Positions 3,183-24,667 of a DNA stretch of 26,810 bases are shown here, one piece after another (position 1 is the stretch's first letter; each line of letters starts with the position of its first letter). The notes under the pieces were generated by a model. That model ran no database searches, had not been told where the DNA came from, and saw only the letters and a program-made list of their open reading frames with translations. The position numbers and the translations under genes are program-made. Where the stretch lies: the IMG/VR virus record IMGVR_UViG_3300025470_000072, positions 1 to 26,810 of that record; one strand, written 5' to 3'. Source of the stretch: a virus (Duplodnaviria > Caudoviricetes).

Positions 3183-4144
3183 TTTGCCACCATTTCGTTT
3201 ACAAGTTCGCCTGGTACTTGCAAGATAAACGCGGCATTGTCTTGGAAACCCCAAGAGATAAGCAGGTCGCCGTTATGTTCGGCAGCTCCTACGCAGAACT
3301 CAATCCTGCCGTCTAAGAACTTAAACGGTTCAGGTGAGATGCCGATAAGGTGCAGTTCGTCATCATAAACGCAGAGACGGTGGTTGTAGATGCCGTCCTT
3401 TTGCCCAAGATAGTTCTTGAACAAGTCCACTTCATGCGTGATAGAAATATAGTGGTCGCCCCAACGGATAACCTGCGAGCTTCCGCGCTGATCCTTTTCG
3501 GGCTTTAGCCCGCCGAAGTGAAGCGTGTCTTGCATGGCTTGGTCTCCCACAACAGAGACAACCTCAACAGGTGAGTGCCATTTGATGAAGTTAAAAGGTC
3601 GGTCAATGACCGGAACCCAGTTCTTCTCGCAGTACGAGTTATCGGGTTGCGGTGCTTTGATGCGTGTTCGGGAAACTTCCTTAACGCTCCAGTTGTTTTT
3701 ATTTATCTCTACCTTAGATAGTTCCATGCGACCCACGCCGTTAGTTGTGGTGTCTCGGCGAACTCCGATGAGATAGTAGCCATCCCAGTAAACAAGGCGA
3801 GCATCTTCTAATCCGACAAACTCCCAGATAGGTTCATGCAAGTTCAGCATTTCTACCTTGGTGCAATCGGTGATGTTTAAATCGTTGTTGAGTCGAACGA
3901 CATAATTCTCAGTAACGAGTCGCTGGTCTTTCTCGGGGTGGAGATAAGCAAGTGGCCCCCACCGCGAGGGAAAGATTTGCACATTCTCGCTATGAAAGAG
4001 GATGTAGTTGACGACTCGGACATTAACGAGGATGTCGCCATCTGGATCAATAAAGACCGATGGGTTCATGCCACCGAATGTTCCGGGTATTGCTAGTGGG
4101 GCTAACTTACCGCCCTGTGCAACCGCCTTTTGCACTAAATTCAT
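3173..4144 (-). CDS. GH130/GH43-like five-bladed beta-propeller glycosidase or phosphorylase
   Basis: Motifs NPSV, GLEDARL, EKNWVP, RGSS, IEFCVG are typical of this propeller superfamily. Confidence 0.7.
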   Translation of the reverse strand: MNLVQKAVAQGGKLAPLAIPGTFGGMNPSVFIDPDGDILVNVRVVNYILFHSENVQIFPSRWGPLAYLHPEKDQRLVTENYVVRLNNDLNITDCTKVEMLNLHEPIWEFVGLEDARLVYWDGYYLIGVRRDTTTNGVGRMELSKVEINKNNWSVKEVSRTRIKAPQPDNSYCEKNWVPVIDRPFNFIKWHSPVEVVSVVGDQAMQDTLHFGGLKPEKDQRGSSQVIRWGDHYISITHEVDLFKNYLGQKDGIYNHRLCVYDDELHLIGISPEPFKFLDGRIEFCVGAAEHNGDLLISWGFQDNAAFILQVPGELVNEMVAKCL

Positions 4145-12126: not shown

Positions 12127-12309
12127 TTACTTACGGAGGATATGCACACGCGGTTTAGACTTTCGGCGCTTGTCGTATGCCGCCTGTAACTTATCCAAGT
12201 CGTATTGACCATTCACGCACTCTATCTCATCTTCCATAATCCAGTTGTAAACGGTGCGGTTAGTGACTTTATAGAGAAGGCTGGCTTGAATGACATTAAC
12301 TTTGGGCAT
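12127..12309 (-). CDS. Small HTH DNA-binding protein
   Basis: VIQASLLYKVTNRTVYNWI is a MerR/Xis-like HTH. Confidence 0.65.
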   Translation of the reverse strand: MPKVNVIQASLLYKVTNRTVYNWIMEDEIECVNGQYDLDKLQAAYDKRRKSKPRVHILRK

Positions 12310-12916
12310 CAAGCATCTTTCCAAGCAGTCGCCATTGGTGGGATTCCCAGACCGTACCGCATCGCCGGCACTTAATCTCTGAAGTGCGCTCTAGCTGAGT
12401 CGGGTCAATCTTGAGTTTAGTACCGCAGACTTCATCCTCTTTATTTATCGTGGGGCATTTGCCGATTATTATCTCGTCAGACTTCTTGCCAAGAATAAAC
12501 ATAATCTTGTTATGCGTAGAGATAATAACGGTGGCAAGGTCAACGGCTTCGTTGTAGTTCTTGTATGCCCAATCCCCGCGCTTAGATATGTATTCGCAGG
12601 TCATGGTGATTTTATTTATCTCTTGCCCGCGAAAGGTAATGCGCGTTTCGGATCGCGCCTCGCGCATCATGGCTTCGTGGCGCATGAGTGGAGTGCTAAT
12701 ACCGCCTGAGCGCATATTCAGGGTTTCGATACGAACTGGAAGCGGTGGAGTCTTGCTACCGGATACTTTCTCACCGCTTCGCCCGCTACTCGGAATCAGC
12801 TCGCGCTCTAGGTCGTAATATAAATCAGGAAACTTCACCAACCGCGACATGGCAAATTGCCAGCATGACGGACAAATATCATGCTGGCTATCCCTGCGAC
12901 AGTTGGCACATTTCAT
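12296..12916 (-). CDS. Zinc-ribbon hypothetical protein
   Basis: N-terminal CxxC..CxxC and C-terminal CP...C...CxxC motifs. Confidence 0.7.
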   Translation of the reverse strand: MKCANCRRDSQHDICPSCWQFAMSRLVKFPDLYYDLERELIPSSGRSGEKVSGSKTPPLPVRIETLNMRSGGISTPLMRHEAMMREARSETRITFRGQEINKITMTCEYISKRGDWAYKNYNEAVDLATVIISTHNKIMFILGKKSDEIIIGKCPTINKEDEVCGTKLKIDPTQLERTSEIKCRRCGTVWESHQWRLLGKMLDAQS

Positions 12917-13071
12917 TTATCGCGCTTGGCCTTAAACGCCAAAACATCAGCGCGGTTGTAATAGACCCTCTTGCCTTTTTTCTCTACCCAAGTTAACTGC
13001 TTGCGGTTTTGTAGTTGGTGCAGGTTGTTATGGGTAATGACAAGAAGCTCGCAGACTTCATCGCTTGTCAT
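12913..13071 (-). CDS. Small HTH protein, 52 aa (not in the ORF track)
   Basis: MTSDEVCELLVITHNNLHQLQNRKQL...YYNRADV; TAATG and ATGA coupled on both sides. Confidence 0.75.
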   Translation of the reverse strand: MTSDEVCELLVITHNNLHQLQNRKQLTWVEKKGKRVYYNRADVLAFKAKRDK

Positions 13072-13466
13072 TAGTTCCAAGAGCTACCCCACTCAGGCTC
13101 ATCGTTCTTAGGCTTTGAGAACTGTGATTTATTGGCAGACTTCAACACAATCGTAATGTCGTCAGCCTTGATTTCTAAACCTTGCTTCTGTGAGCCGTCT
13201 TTAGCTTGATAGGAGCTGACCTTGAGCGTTCCGACAACCTTTACGCGCTCGCCTTTGCGAACTGCATCAGTAACAAGTTCTGCTTGCTTGCCGAGGATAG
13301 AGGTGCGAAACCAAACCGTCTCGCCGTCAACCCAATCCTGACCCTTCTTCTCGCGTGGTGTGTACGCAAGCGAAAAAGACGCAACGCCAAACGACCCATT
13401 CTTGCCTTCGAAGAACTTAATCTCTGGATCAGTTCCTACATTTCCTACAACTTCAATGCGAGCCAT
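13071..13466 (-). CDS. ssb: Single-stranded DNA-binding protein
   Basis: GNVGTDPE, TVWFR, KGERVKVVGTL OB-fold pattern. Confidence 0.92.
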   Translation of the reverse strand: MARIEVVGNVGTDPEIKFFEGKNGSFGVASFSLAYTPREKKGQDWVDGETVWFRTSILGKQAELVTDAVRKGERVKVVGTLKVSSYQAKDGSQKQGLEIKADDITIVLKSANKSQFSKPKNDEPEWGSSWN

Positions 13467-13470
13467 CCTG

Positions 13471-13791
13471 CTATTCCAATCGTTCGTAGTTACCTTCGTT
13501 GTCTATTCTAACAACCTCAGCGCCGTGTAGGTGCATGGGGTAGTCGGCGGGATTAGCCCATGAAGGACACATCCAACCTTTCATCGTTGCCCGCGCCGGG
13601 TTGAGATGAATACTGTCTGTGCCGAGGTTATGGCACTTGTGATGAACGGCAATCAGGTTGCTTACTTCATCTTTTCCGCCGCGAGATTTCAGCTTGCGAT
13701 GATGTAAGGCAAAGTCGTCACCCGAACCCCCACACATCTCGCAATATCCTTTTGCGCGAGCTAATACCGTCTCGGCTATTTTCTTATCCAC
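13471..13791 (-). CDS. HNH endonuclease
   Basis: CEMC...HHR...GG...NL...CH; GTG start at 13791. Confidence 0.85.
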   Translation of the reverse strand: MDKKIAETVLARAKGYCEMCGGSGDDFALHHRKLKSRGGKDEVSNLIAVHHKCHNLGTDSIHLNPARATMKGWMCPSWANPADYPMHLHGAEVVRIDNEGNYERLE

Positions 13792-14317
13792 GCTTTTGCT
13801 CAACAATCAAGAAAGGCGGTGCGGTATATGGGTCTTTCTCGGAAGCAATCGTAAGAGCTTTCTTAATACTTGCACCTTGCTTAAGCGCCCCAATAGCAAG
13901 GCTGCTGCCACTACCAATCCCATAAATACCATCGGAATCAAGGCAGATAGCGAAATCATCAGCAATATCAAATACTTCACCGTGAACTGCAACCAAGAAC
14001 GCAAATCGTGTCTCGTCATCTTTATCATCTTCCAGCTTGAGGTCGTTGTCTTTAAAGCATTGCTTAAGCGCCGGGATGAACTTAGAAATCATGAAGTGAT
14101 ACAAGTCTTTCTTATCAGCTTCGGTTGGCTTGGGCGGGTTAAATATGTGTTGCGCCACATCGCAATACGAACTAAGACCAGCGCCAGCAATAAGGAATTG
14201 CCCGCGTTCGGTTATCTTGACCATCTTGGGGTGGGTGTATTTGCGAGTTGCGGTGACTAATGAATCCGATCCGATAACCACCTTGTCGGCGTATTGTCGG
14301 GCAACAATCGTGGTCAT
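13784..14317 (-). CDS. HslV/proteasome-beta-like Ntn threonine protease
   Basis: N-terminal MTTIV, DS, a Lys near position 30, IGSGS and DPYT. Confidence 0.8.
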   Translation of the reverse strand: MTTIVARQYADKVVIGSDSLVTATRKYTHPKMVKITERGQFLIAGAGLSSYCDVAQHIFNPPKPTEADKKDLYHFMISKFIPALKQCFKDNDLKLEDDKDDETRFAFLVAVHGEVFDIADDFAICLDSDGIYGIGSGSSLAIGALKQGASIKKALTIASEKDPYTAPPFLIVEQKRG

Positions 14318-14338
14318 GGGGATACCTTACACCATAAG

Positions 14339-14384
14339 AAAATATGCGTTTGAGCGCATATTTGTAGCTACAATGTAGCTACAA
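14339..14384. promoter_or_regulatory. Palindromic operator-like cluster
   Basis: AAATATGCG/CGCATATTT inverted repeat followed by two tandem TGTAGCTACA palindromes. Confidence 0.5.
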
Positions 14385-14388
14385 GCAC

Positions 14389-14420
14389 AAAGCCCCACAC
14401 CCTTGAGAAATGTGGGGCTA
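14389..14420 (-). terminator. Putative intrinsic terminator
   Basis: AGCCCCACA/TGTGGGGCT stem followed by TTGTGCTTGT. Confidence 0.55.
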
Positions 14421-14552
14421 AGGCAGACAACCGCGAGCGCAATCAACTGGAGGTAATCATGCGCTCAAGCGGTCGTACCTTCACGGAAGAGGAACGGCTC
14501 TTTCGTGAAATCTAGCGACTCACGCCCATAGGCGCGGTCAGGATTGTCATCC
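14420..14552 (-). ncRNA. Candidate structured sRNA with anti-RBS loops
   Basis: Consecutive hairpins whose loops ACCUCC(AGUU) and CCGUUC are complementary to early-gene leaders. Strand is inferred. Confidence 0.45.
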
Positions 14553-14984
14553 TTAATACCAGTAATGGCGATTCCAGAAGCGGAGTGCGTTGCAGGGAGT
14601 TGAGTATCGGTCACGAATATATCGTAACCCGACATTCACTTGCTGACTAACGCTTGCTAATGGCGATAATCCAATCCTCTGAGGAATACCCCCGGCGTGA
14701 TAAGAAACCGTTAACCCATCCACCACTAGCTTCACAGGAGTAGCGTTGTAGGCGTTTGGTCGCCAGTTACTCTCGTTAGTCCAGACGGTGACTAGGCATC
14801 TCCATTGGTAGGTGGAGTTCCATCCGTATTTATGAAGTTGTGAGTGTGCGTAGGCTTTTGCCGCTGCAGGTGTGCGCTCTATCGCATCCGTAAATGCTTT
14901 AGGGCTTTGCGCCACCGATGGACTTGCAAACCCGATCCCAACCGCAAGCGCGGCGACTACAAGGAAACGAGTCTTGAACTTCAG
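14553..14984 (-). CDS. Secreted lysozyme-like transglycosylase (SLT/Rpf/Apf-like) with signal peptide; putative CTG start
   Basis: ESNW, AGGIPQ, GLRYIRDRY, HYWY. Signal peptide KFKTRFLVVAALAVGIGFASPSVA lies upstream of the tracked GTG. Confidence 0.82.
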   Translation of the reverse strand: MKFKTRFLVVAALAVGIGFASPSVAQSPKAFTDAIERTPAAAKAYAHSQLHKYGWNSTYQWRCLVTVWTNESNWRPNAYNATPVKLVVDGLTVSYHAGGIPQRIGLSPLASVSQQVNVGLRYIRDRYSTPCNALRFWNRHYWY

Positions 14985-15019
14985 CGCGAACCAATCGCCG
15001 CCTGTTCCATAGCGTTCAT
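14981..15019 (-). CDS. uORF2, 12 aa MNAMEQAAIGSR
   Basis: GGAGG SD; its stop overlaps the CTG (CTGA). Confidence 0.5.
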   Translation of the reverse strand: MNAMEQAAIGSR

Positions 15020-15048
15020 CGTGTGCCTCCGTTGTTAAGTGCGTTCAT
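15016..15048 (-). CDS. uORF1, 10 aa MNALNNGGTR
   Basis: AAGGAGG SD; ATGA overlap with uORF2. Confidence 0.5.
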   Translation of the reverse strand: MNALNNGGTR

Positions 15049-15078
15049 TTCTGAACCTCCTTAGTCGGTTGTGGGTTA

Positions 15079-15084
15079 ATTATA
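15079..15084 (-). promoter_or_regulatory. -10 element TATAAT
   Basis: Perfect TATAAT about 30 nt upstream of uORF1; no clear -35. Confidence 0.5.
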
Positions 15085-15157
15085 GTGCATACAGAGCAGG
15101 TCTTACCCAAGACCATCCATTCTCCACACCCTCTGCATCGGGCGATATTCCACTCGT

Positions 15158-15525: not shown

Positions 15526-15658
15526 TTGCCTTCTCCAGTTCTGTTTCGATGTTTTGTTTGATAACACAATGCTTGCAGACATAGACCCGAAAGCCCATAT
15601 ATAAGCCTTTATATAATTTTTTATTGGCGGCCGAGCAGAAACCACATTGAGCCATCAT
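15518..15658 (-). CDS. Small zinc-finger protein, 46 aa (ClpX C4-like spacing)
   Basis: MMAQCGFC...YVCKHC; ATGA-coupled; not in the track. Confidence 0.65.
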   Translation of the reverse strand: MMAQCGFCSAANKKLYKGLYMGFRVYVCKHCVIKQNIETELEKASA

Positions 15659-17207: not shown

Positions 17208-17483
17208 TTATGCGACTTCAATTTGATTAAGGTTGAATGAGCAGAAATGTTGTCCAGCCTCAAACCACACATCAGCCTTGCCGAGCTTTGTATTGACTGA
17301 ATCAAGGATTCCGTACTCAACACCTGCAAGTGATGTAACTTTTACAGTTTGTCCGATTGTCATATTGCGCACTTCATTGACTCGGTTAAGAAAGCAGGTG
17401 TAGCACTCAACTGCCATTTTGCCATTGTCTGATTGTGCGGTTGTAAACTTGGTATTGCAGTAAATACAATTTCTTGTAGCCAT
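17208..17483 (-). CDS. Hypothetical early protein with zinc-finger N-terminus
   Basis: CIYC...CYTC; GGAG SD; follows a promoter. Confidence 0.65.
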   Translation of the reverse strand: MATRNCIYCNTKFTTAQSDNGKMAVECYTCFLNRVNEVRNMTIGQTVKVTSLAGVEYGILDSVNTKLGKADVWFEAGQHFCSFNLNQIEVA

Positions 17484-17526
17484 TTTGTTCTCCAGTTCTG
17501 CCCCGCCGTTCGGGGCTTATGGGTAA

Positions 17527-17555
17527 AACATACGCCCGATCCGCTAGGCAATCAA
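17527..17555 (-). promoter_or_regulatory. Sigma70/SigA-type early promoter
   Basis: TTGATT-17-TATGTT, then a GCCCCG-AACGG-CGGGGC hairpin and an SD. Confidence 0.65.
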
Positions 17556-19648: not shown

Positions 19649-20137
19649 TCAATCAATGCTTGCCTCCAATAATCTATCTACGATCCATGACACTACTGGT
19701 ACTGCTACGGCATTTCCCATTTGCTTATAGCGTTGAGAATCCGATTGTCCTTCTGTCCAACCGTCAGGAAATCCCTGAAGGCGTTCGCACTCCACCGGGG
19801 TAAGTCGGCGAACAAGAATTTCTTGATTCATATCTTCCTCCTGCACTAAAAAAGTTTGAGCGTGGTGAGATTGCACCGATGGCTGATGGGCCTGTAAAGC
19901 GTTAGTCACCGTCAACTCTGTTGCGCTAAAAGTATTAGCTTTGGCATCCTCACGAATTGAATACGCTACGACTGGCACATTTCCTCCACCTGTTCCCCAC
20001 CTAGAAATAACTGTTTGCATGATGTCATCTTCATACACGCGTACATCATTGACCCGCGTTCCATCAAGAATTAAAATTTTATTGAACAACGACTTTCCCA
20101 TCTGAGACATATTGATTGCTAATTCCCTTAGCATCAC
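19649..20137 (-). CDS. C5-cytosine MTase C-terminal part (TRD modules, motifs IX-X)
   Basis: RRLTPVECERLQGFPD and YKQMGNAV. Confidence 0.8.
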   Translation of the reverse strand: MMLRELAINMSQMGKSLFNKILILDGTRVNDVRVYEDDIMQTVISRWGTGGGNVPVVAYSIREDAKANTFSATELTVTNALQAHQPSVQSHHAQTFLVQEEDMNQEILVRRLTPVECERLQGFPDGWTEGQSDSQRYKQMGNAVAVPVVSWIVDRLLEASID

Positions 20138-20865
20138 TCGCGGTTAAAGTACCAATAATGTTTCGCTGCCCCCCCCAGAGCGCCCCCGCTTACAGTCAAA
20201 GTTCGGGAGACATCATCTTCTACGAAGTCTGCAAAGCCAGTTTCTCTAAAGCTTCTTGGAGAGCCTTTGGCAGAGTCTTTTCTCTTTTGTCGGCTCGTCT
20301 CAAGATACCTTGCGCGGCCTTCGCTGATAGAAAGTACTTGTGCAGGTGTTCGCCCATCGTCTCCAAGACATCCGACAATGAAGATTCTTCTACGGCGTTG
20401 GGGCACTCCGAAGTACTGAGCGTCAAGAACCCGGTACGCGACCCCATACCCGAGTTCAGCCAGCGCCCCGAGGATGATTCCCAAATCCCTTCCTCCGTTT
20501 GATGACAATAAACCGGGTACATTTTTGAGGATGAACCACCTTGCTTTGGTTTCGTCAAGGAGTCTGACGACTTCGAAAAATAATCCCGAGCGTTCTCCAG
20601 CAAGTCCTTTACGCTTTCCTGCAACTGAGAGGTCTTGGCAGGGGAATCCTCCGACAATAATTCCAGACGATTCGAATCCGAGATCAAGTAGTTGTTGTCC
20701 TGTGACATTTTTTACATCCTCCAAAATAGTTGAATTAGGAAATTGCTTGGTCAAGACCTGCCGAGCGTGTTTATCAATCTCTACAGACGCAACAACTTTT
20801 ACACCCTTGCGTTCTAGCGCGAGGTCAAAACCGCCCACGCCGGCAAATAGGCTAACTGCCTTCAT
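20134..20865 (-). CDS. C5-cytosine MTase N-terminal part (motifs I-VIII), possibly inactive
   Basis: FAGVGG, GGFPCQ, QRRRR; motif VI reads KNV instead of ENV. Confidence 0.85.
   Translation of the reverse strand: MKAVSLFAGVGGFDLALERKGVKVVASVEIDKHARQVLTKQFPNSTILEDVKNVTGQQLLDLGFESSGIIVGGFPCQDLSVAGKRKGLAGERSGLFFEVVRLLDETKARWFILKNVPGLLSSNGGRDLGIILGALAELGYGVAYRVLDAQYFGVPQRRRRIFIVGCLGDDGRTPAQVLSISEGRARYLETSRQKRKDSAKGSPRSFRETGFADFVEDDVSRTLTVSGGALGGAAKHYWYFNRE
20220..20708 (-). CDS. Overlapping +1-frame MTase beta-like polypeptide
   Basis: 162-codon open frame nested in the MTase, ending SLSDVLE...YFLSAKAAQGILRRA. The arrangement resembles M.EcoHK31I alpha/beta. Confidence 0.6.
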   Translation of the reverse strand: MSQDNNYLISDSNRLELLSEDSPAKTSQLQESVKDLLENARDYFSKSSDSLTKPKQGGSSSKMYPVYCHQTEEGIWESSSGRWLNSGMGSRTGFLTLSTSECPNAVEESSLSDVLETMGEHLHKYFLSAKAAQGILRRADKREKTLPKALQEALEKLALQTS

Positions 20866-23580: not shown

Positions 23581-24106
23581 ATTCTTTCTTGCGGGCAGAA
23601 ATAACCTTGTTTAAGGTTGAGCCATCAACAGGAATCTGTAGCAATCCAGCTTCTTGTGCGCCTGTATAAAAGAGCTTCAACTCGGCAACCGAAGAAATCT
23701 CAGGCACTTGGCTGATAGCCTCTAGCGCAAGGTTTACTTGGTCGTCTGTGTATGCAGGTTCTTTTGGTGTTTCAGCTCGGCGAGCTACCTTTTCCATTTC
23801 TTCCTTAGATGGTCGCTTGCCTTTCGCAGCAAACCCACCGTTCGCTAATGCGCGACCCAAAGCTGAGGTTTCGCAGTTCTCTACCCACGCATCACGATTG
23901 ACAGGAGATGAACCTTTAACTTCTTCTGCAATCCCGGTAGCAATCGGGTTGAGGTCTGCGCGATCCGCGTAAATAGAACCAATCATCAAGATTGAGTTCT
24001 CTGTCTTTTCTAGCACCGCAGTATGAGTGCGACCGTTGGGATACTTTTCCCAAAAGCGTTCTAGTCGAACTTCTACTGGTTCGTAGTTATCAAGGTTGTA
24101 AGCCAT
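23564..24106 (-). CDS. Putative ssDNA annealing protein (Rad52/Sak-like)
   Basis: NYEPVEVRL..F...P.G...ATGIAEE...VENCETSALGRAL; clusters with the exonuclease. Confidence 0.6.
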   Translation of the reverse strand: MAYNLDNYEPVEVRLERFWEKYPNGRTHTAVLEKTENSILMIGSIYADRADLNPIATGIAEEVKGSSPVNRDAWVENCETSALGRALANGGFAAKGKRPSKEEMEKVARRAETPKEPAYTDDQVNLALEAISQVPEISSVAELKLFYTGAQEAGLLQIPVDGSTLNKVISARKKELEATK

Positions 24107-24147
24107 TGCCGTTCCTTTGTCCATCTGCCGAAGTTGGCATTGGCTCA

Positions 24148-24177
24148 AGGCTAAAGGTTACAAAGGGTCAAAGTCAA
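24148..24177 (-). promoter_or_regulatory. Putative early promoter
   Basis: TTGACT-18-TAGCCT; shares TCCTTGACTT with the 24639 promoter. Confidence 0.55.
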
Positions 24178-24478: not shown

Positions 24479-24595
24479 TTATGCGCCAACTTTGTCGCAA
24501 TAATCGCGCTCAAATTGCGCTCTGCGCTCTGCAAGCATTTGCTTAATTTGTGCTACTAATTCAGCAGTTGAAAGTTCTTCAAGATTTGTAGCCAT
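24479..24595 (-). CDS. Small helical early protein, 38 aa
   Basis: MATNLEELSTAELVAQIKQMLAERRAQFERDYCDKVGA; GGAGG SD, own promoter and terminator. Confidence 0.7.
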   Translation of the reverse strand: MATNLEELSTAELVAQIKQMLAERRAQFERDYCDKVGA

Positions 24596-24638
24596 TTCGA
24601 TTCCTCCAGAATCTTGAGCGCCGTTCGCTCATGTCTTA

Positions 24639-24667
24639 AAGATATACTTCCGCTAACCTCAAGTCAA
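24639..24667 (-). promoter_or_regulatory. Sigma70/SigA-type early promoter
   Basis: TTGACT-17-TATCTT, then a GAGCG-AACGG-CGCTC hairpin and an SD. Confidence 0.7.

Follow-up and report, generated by a model that had tools for sequence, protein, structure and literature searches.

The C4 RNA of bacteriophages P1 and P7 is described as binding, through its loop sequences, around the ribosome-binding site of a phage mRNA (PMC12197685, PMC8546580), and c4 motifs are listed for Proteobacteria and their phages (PMC2864571). The CI RNA of phage P4 is reported to be cut from a longer transcript and to silence the phage's own early genes via two complementary sites (PMC4825925). In Escherichia coli, two stem-loops of the sRNA OxyS kiss two stem-loops of fhlA mRNA, one sequestering the ribosome-binding site (PMC2946933). 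The PeSL cassettes of T4-like phages are described as a promoter, a stem-loop and a Shine-Dalgarno (SD) sequence preceding variable small genes (PMC2839356, PMC4122927).

The window studied here, i.e. the whole stretch of DNA analyzed, is a whole virus record of 26.8 kb (26,810 nt) with its genes on the minus strand. For the gap that follows its transglycosylase gene (14389-14552), the original prediction proposed an RNA analogous to P1 C4 or P4 CI that silences early genes by loop-loop pairing. We computed structure, covariation, the leader module and complementarity, and give a probability of about 0.7 to the sequence-based reading that a minus-strand RNA of two hairpins acts in trans as an antisense RNA, blocking translation of the early cassettes by two-site kissing. 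The relevant features are collected in Table 1.

Table 1. Features of the window connected with the predicted RNA and its putative targets
Feature	Positions	Strand	Basis or remark
Conserved two-hairpin RNA core, hairpin A then B	14422..14510	-	101/108 loci, covariation
Hairpin A, loop CCGUUC at 14497-14492, complement of the leader loop G-AACGG	14481..14508	-	
Hairpin B with 2-nt bulge, anti-Shine-Dalgarno loop CCUCCAG at 14453-14447	14422..14479	-	
Optional 5′ hairpins, stop codon to hairpin A	14516..14552	-	fold
Intrinsic-terminator-like hairpin, three G.U pairs on the minus strand; likely 3′ end of the RNA	14381..14419	-	
Transglycosylase-like gene, signal-peptide-like N terminus (by eye)	14553..14984	-	PHROG 15428/12661
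Two overlapping mini-ORFs of 10 and 12 codons	14981..15048	-	sequence
Predicted -10 box TATAAT (15084-15079) and +1 (~15072) of the RNA-carrying transcript	15072..15084	-	
Leader 1: TTGACT-17-TATCTT promoter, hairpin UGAGCG-AACGG-CGCUCA (24631-24615), ATG	24593..24667	-	
Leader 2: TTGATT-17-TATGTT promoter, hairpin GCCCCG-AACGG-CGGGGC (17516-17500)	17481..17555	-	
Possible third target: promoter, leader with AGGAACGGC (9 bp to hairpin A) over the SD	24104..24177	-	
AACTGGAG in a small coding frame, SD of the next GTG	15533..15540	-	without loop-A hairpin

By matches to PHROG-type profiles, the window encodes portal, terminase, methyltransferases, SSB, HNH, HslV-like peptidase and transglycosylase proteins, as well as RusA, an O-like replication protein, WhiB and a Cas4-like exonuclease. 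Its cytosine methyltransferase (19649-20865, minus strand) appears in two or three overlapping frames (20134-20865, 19649-20137 and 20220-20708), each of which matches methyltransferase profiles. WhiB is named as a key indicator of actinophages (PMC10202952). Since the nearest cellular homologues of the transglycosylase in GTDB are mostly actinobacterial and at most 42% identical, the host group can be named by inference only, and among these homologues neither a prophage copy nor a host was found. The carriers are uncultured lake phages of one family, likely with actinobacterial hosts. One relative, G001, is complete at 41,191 bases, with terminal repeats and siphovirus tail genes; it also encodes an ADP-ribosyltransferase domain fused to a MuF-like head protein (L331:11934-13445).

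The gap after the transglycosylase gene had been described as a run of hairpins and indeed folds far better than its shuffles (z -5.9 on the minus strand and -4.9 on the plus strand). The two minus-strand motifs singled out there, the anti-SD ACCUCC (14454-14449) and CCGUUC, both lie in loops: within the core the unpaired probability was 0.8-1.0 for CCUCC and 1.0 for loop A. When the full transcript was folded without constraint loop A was about half open; with pair span limited to 150 it was fully open. Of the stretch 14389-14552 originally taken as the element, only the two central hairpins proved to be a conserved core, the 5′ hairpins and the terminator varying between lineages. The 5′ hairpins are missing in L019, L139-L145, L147, L185 and related types. 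Three further observations concern the DNA downstream of the core. In the window (14360-14385), L011 and L013 the terminator is followed by short TGTAGCTACA/TGTAGCCACAA repeats, whose copy number varies. Some members of the L139 lineage (L191, L192, L208, L217 and L225) have an extra conserved structured segment of ~130 nt between hairpin B and the next gene. In L147 (8556-8628) a tRNA-Asn gene stands directly 3′ of hairpin B, so that 5′ processing of the tRNA could make the 3′ end of the RNA there.

Relatives of the element were collected as 108 loci, 104 via the transglycosylase protein and 4 via a DNA pattern, many being the same contig filed twice. The core lies directly after the transglycosylase stop codon in 101 of them and the remaining 7 end inside the gene. 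They comprise 31 sequence types, of which 30 entered the alignment and one, containing an N, was left out. Nine of the 15 consensus pairs change on both sides, 97.1% of cells are paired, and the covariation score of 0.539 compares with 0.202 for shuffled alignments and at most 0.19 when slid; two of five shuffle measures were unexceptional (191 and 214 of 500). Stem A has 7-11 bp (median 9.5 bp) and differs in sequence between types, and stem B has a median of 17 bp, with its lower stem covarying. On these changing stems loop A reads CCGUUC in 27 types, CCGUUU in 2 and UCGUUC in 1, and loop B reads CCUCCA in 30/30. This constancy is not due to selection of the loci: nearly all were found via the protein, and the loop pattern was present in every locus with downstream DNA. 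The RNA occurs once in each of 5 genome records. The matches listed by a first DNA-pattern scan were mostly chance matches.

The search of Rfam with Infernal that had been suggested as a check gave no family match. In the window there was no match to C4 (RF01695) at the gathering score or at E up to 10, and the only match listed, Ms_IGR-2 (E 7.9), lies outside the RNA; four relatives searched at E up to 1 gave none, nor did 5 records, and control genomes likewise gave none. A BLASTN search with the RNA in 50,697 annotated phages gave no match. Model R1 identified no new member in 74 other loci, which included 30 of 80 bacterial loci with distant transglycosylase homologues, and in 100 loci from a UCGUUC scan it gave one weak partial match lacking loop B and otherwise nothing. 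We found no description of this RNA in the literature, nor of such an RNA for the host group. Four supplement files of PMC10690425 held no match to the loop words, and file 4 also none to four contig ids; the motif may still be among the 10,006 candidates of that work, in its alignment files. The RNA family is real and apparently undescribed.

All six leader motifs of the original prediction, and the 18-aa plus-strand ORF noted as a caveat, were recovered at their positions. A third minus-strand copy of AACTGGAG, at 3687-3694 inside a gene, had been left out. The warning that the matches are short was justified for single words: GAACGGC alone has 8 minus-strand copies in the window, 5 of them inside ORFs. 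The composite GAACGGC-N8-12-CTGGAG occurs twice (17490-17511 and 24604-24626, 3 and 10 kb from the RNA) and in none of 100 shuffles (mean 0.00, maximum 0), which agrees with the claim that two leaders carry both motifs. In G001 there are 2 leaders versus a mean of 0.02 in 200 shuffles.

In these leaders a sigma70-type promoter is followed by a 5′ hairpin, with loop AACGG on changing stems, and then by a UGGAG Shine-Dalgarno. Both window leaders have, at their predicted 5′ end, a 6-bp hairpin with AACGG as its loop; the stems are unrelated, begin 1-5 nt past the predicted +1 and are followed by no U run. The SD of leader 1 is itself the loop of a hairpin, GAUUC-UGGAG-GAAUC. Leader 2 has AACUGGAG as its SD, followed by the ATG of a small-gene cassette, and the same leader precedes different first genes in L004-L006, L009 and L012. 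Of the four leaders originally put forward, those at 24632-24593 and 17520-17481 are strong. The AGGAACGGC site at 24108-24116 is specific to the window's lineage, others having AACUGGAGG or AAGGAGG, a plain SD, at this place. The site at 15533-15540, lacking a loop-A hairpin, is a doubtful target; L012 and L013 have a full leader at a similar distance from the transglycosylase gene.

For comparison across the family, 37 leaders were taken from contigs that also hold the RNA. They were picked for [AG]ACG[GA] and TGGAG, so complementarity of the core within this set is by selection, and the informative parts are the hairpin, the position of the promoter and the flanks. The stems differ, the AACG loop core is kept, and the hairpin always lies just past a TAnnnT box where the promoter is readable. 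A scan of all viral contigs with the leader pattern matched 42 loci. By eye, 17 of these have both promoter and hairpin, and all 17 belong to this phage family. The RNA is on the same locus in 10; the other 7 are G001, where it lies just beyond the locus, and six short or truncated records. A leader-like hairpin pair with GAACGG and CUGGAG was also seen in an unrelated 68-kb phage (L356:10001, minus strand), which has no match to model R1.

Twenty-three of the 37 leaders pair with the RNA of their contig over all 7 positions formed by loop A and its closing bases, two of them with the help of G.U pairs. L183 combines a UCGUUC loop with GAACGA in both of its leaders, a compensated change seen in 2 leaders of a single lineage; a dedicated scan for a second UCGUUC lineage found none. 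Two other changes keep G.U pairs at loop A (leader GGACGG in L013 and loop CCGUUU in L186). In 11/37 leaders AACGA faces a CCGUUC loop, an uncompensated C.A mismatch; 8 of these form one leader clade that pairs over 9-11 bp at loop B and may in this way make up for the mismatch.

At loop B, cognate combinations pair over 7.81 bp on average, compared with 7.22 bp when the 9 lineages are permuted in every way (p 0.014; p 0.022 for energy). RNAs of lineages with AUGGAGG leaders carry GCCUCCA, those of most lineages with AACUGGAG leaders carry CUCCAGUU, and the L017 RNA pairs over 12 bp with its own leader. We regard this advantage as modest support, because the lineages were grouped by eye and are mutually related, and an RNA of another lineage is often a better partner than the cognate one: leaders of the window's lineage pair better with RNAs of lineages 9 and 10. 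Unconstrained duplex energies, which ignore structure, were set aside. Covariation between loops and leaders, proposed at the outset as a check, was found in L183, with a modest cognate advantage at loop B, and is lacking in the 11 uncompensated leaders. The core of the original prediction, a structured minus-strand RNA with loops matching the leaders, has gained from covarying stems, fixed loops, one compensatory change in loop A and the cognate advantage of loop B.

The RNA has no promoter of its own. TAYAAT or TATACT occupies the -10 place upstream of the mini-ORFs in all 13 members with enough upstream DNA (15 listed); in the window this box was not among the sites found by a consensus promoter scan. 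In L013, L020, L138 and L143 a conserved TTGAC stands 19 nt before it, not 17 nt as in the early promoters. The transglycosylase promoter may belong to a class other than that of the early promoters. The transglycosylase gene likely starts at an invariant CTG (14984-14982 in the window) that overlaps the stop codon of the second mini-ORF, which seems in turn to be coupled to the first; the CTG is present in 15/15 relatives listed. In L186 an in-frame stop stands just before the CTG and in L204 both mini-ORFs are fused into one, from which the coupling cascade looks conserved. In L020 (9950-10003), L138 (3660-3713) and related loci the predicted transcript of the RNA itself starts with unpaired AACGA, and UGGAGG is the SD of the second mini-ORF. 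Both elements occur in most lineages outside the window's and are absent from the window's lineage; they would be a possible autoregulatory target.

Parts of 13800-15100 were present in 21 lake metatranscriptome runs, 8 of which were examined. In all 8, contigs cover the transglycosylase gene, and in 5 they reach into the RNA; contigs end at 14416-14427, beside the terminator, in 3 runs and at 14551-14555, by the stop codon, in 3 runs. As the runs were chosen with this stretch, missing cover elsewhere or past the terminator carries no weight. The contigs, which are unstranded, assembled and from close relatives, weakly hint at a transcript from ~15072 to the terminator.

From these features we infer an RNA that accumulates from the minus strand, pairs with the leaders and represses them. 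It would be the 3′ part of a short minus-strand transglycosylase transcript, or be cut from it. Loop A would form a kissing contact with the AACGG loop with which the likely early transcripts of the phage begin, and loop B would cover the UGGAG Shine-Dalgarno of the leaders, blocking translation. Loop A would give specificity, because loop B alone matches a common SD. With the SD itself covered by loop B, the effect is more likely to be repression than activation. Stem A, the kissing helix and the leader stem are together about as long as stem B (17 bp), which could bring loop B next to the SD even with the two sites arranged in the same order. The simplest role would be feedback on, or shut-off of, the 2-4 strong promoter cassettes of each genome during infection.

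A more far-reaching role is conceivable, if rather unlikely: an RNA-only master repressor that shuts all early cassettes at once in a siphovirus family without integrase and protein repressor, and thereby maintains superinfection immunity or a carrier state without integration, the transglycosylase-plus-RNA unit being the transcript of that state in lake actinobacteria. Among the 84 ORFs of G001 that were scanned, integrase, XRE repressor, antirepressor and ParA are all absent. Tyrosine integrase, serine recombinase and HTH_3 were each found in 0/5 genome records, 2 of which are at least 90% complete, and no antirepressor was found among 39 window proteins. 

The same data could reflect a cis-acting 3′ structure of the transglycosylase mRNA, such as a stabiliser, a terminator or a put-like antiterminator, with the leaders being mobile promoter cassettes of a PeSL-like kind, their common loops inherited, and the complementarity being incidental. 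Such a structure would fit an element that is always directly 3′ of one gene and has, after hairpin B, a U-rich run (L139 lineage) or a terminator (other lineages); identical leaders before different first genes are also a feature described for PeSLs (PMC2839356). However, both loops are fixed on changing stems and both match leader motifs, which this explanation does not account for, nor does it account for the joint change in L183 or the cognate advantage. Descent alone, moreover, does not give a kept leader loop on sequence-unrelated stems. We hold the cis-acting structure to be distinctly unlikely.

The RNA is likely encoded by the minus strand, which is favoured by G.U pairs, the terminator and the conserved upstream promoter. 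Isolated stem mismatches in distinct contexts read as G.U on the minus strand in 6 cases versus A.C in 2. The G.U evidence on strand had been called mixed; this holds for helix A (1 to 1) and not overall, helix B giving 5 to 1. The terminator-like hairpin is oriented on the minus strand, and the -10 box, two mini-ORFs and transglycosylase gene form a constant 5′ neighbourhood, with a 3′ neighbour that varies (tRNA-Asn in L147). Whole-core fold energy is lower on the plus strand in 20/31 types and was discarded as a strand test, because a G-rich strand tends to fold lower. This energy, the z of -4.9 and one G.U pair of the window's hairpin A would suit a plus-strand RNA with leader-like loops (CUGGAGG and GAACGG) serving as a decoy for a leader-binding protein. 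Such a decoy is quite improbable: no plus-strand promoter-like site was found from 12240 to 14643, the DNA that would hold one varies freely among relatives (terminator, tRNA-Asn or next gene), helix B favours the minus strand, and the decoy loop would have 6 nt where the leader loop has 5 nt.

For the minus-strand RNA, the anti-SD loop could mainly be directed at host mRNAs, or at ribosome-binding sites generally, as a takeover device. CCUCC is a generic anti-SD, and UGGAG is one of several SD forms in G001 (10/36 GGAG words before a start). The loop CCUCCA[G/C], however, fits the (C)UGGAG of the phage leaders and not the commoner AGGAG, and loop A has no such generic match, which makes a host-directed device very improbable. 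The plus-strand SD and 18-aa ORF (14459-14515), with GGAGG 5 nt before the ATG in the window, can be dismissed as a functional unit: the ATG is present in 8/31 types, all of one lineage, with frame changes giving lengths of 18, 22 and 23 aa, 22/31 types have no start, and 1 has an unrelated TTG frame.

We return to the two-hairpin antisense RNA and its relation to described systems. Like c4 (RF01695), it is phage-encoded and structured, would act in trans, and has loops complementary, here by computation, to the ribosome-binding region of its targets. It has no covariance-model match to c4, and what C4 regulates is the synthesis of an antirepressor, in a temperate phage that has a protein repressor, whereas here several separate promoter leaders 3-10 kb away would be addressed and no integrase or XRE repressor was found. 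P4 CI is likewise a phage RNA with two complementary sites in the phage's own early genes, but those sites, seqA and seqC, lie on either side of CI within one leader, and its action ends in transcription termination; the sites predicted here are found 3 and 10 kb from the RNA, and one of them is the SD itself. The analogy originally drawn with C4 and CI therefore extends to mechanism, not to family or to the placing of targets.

The arrangement would most resemble OxyS-fhlA in that each of two RNA loops has an exposed complementary site in the target, with one of these sites lying over the SD. OxyS is a host sRNA assisted by Hfq, its second site is in the coding region, and no homology to it is indicated by Rfam; here both sites fall within a 40-nt leader that is repeated across the phage regulon, in the same order as the loops of the RNA. 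Actinobacteria are generally not known to have Hfq. The likeness to PeSLs concerns the leaders only, as a repeated promoter, stem-loop and SD before variable genes. In the accounts compared, most PeSL stem-loops are placed between -35 and -10 or overlap -10, they act as terminators, and no antisense partner is described for them, whereas here the hairpin follows the predicted +1, has a fixed loop and lacks a U run.

By analogy, then, the RNA would work like P1 C4, P4 CI and OxyS, and by model match and arrangement it belongs to none of them. The known phage antisense repressors C4 and CI serve one operon, beside or around them. The RNA predicted here would address a set of scattered early promoters via a portable two-part leader, in phages without a recognisable repressor. 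As the RNA and the leader are short and have natural variants, including the L183 pair, this form of loop-loop control over a regulon can be tested without culture of the phage.
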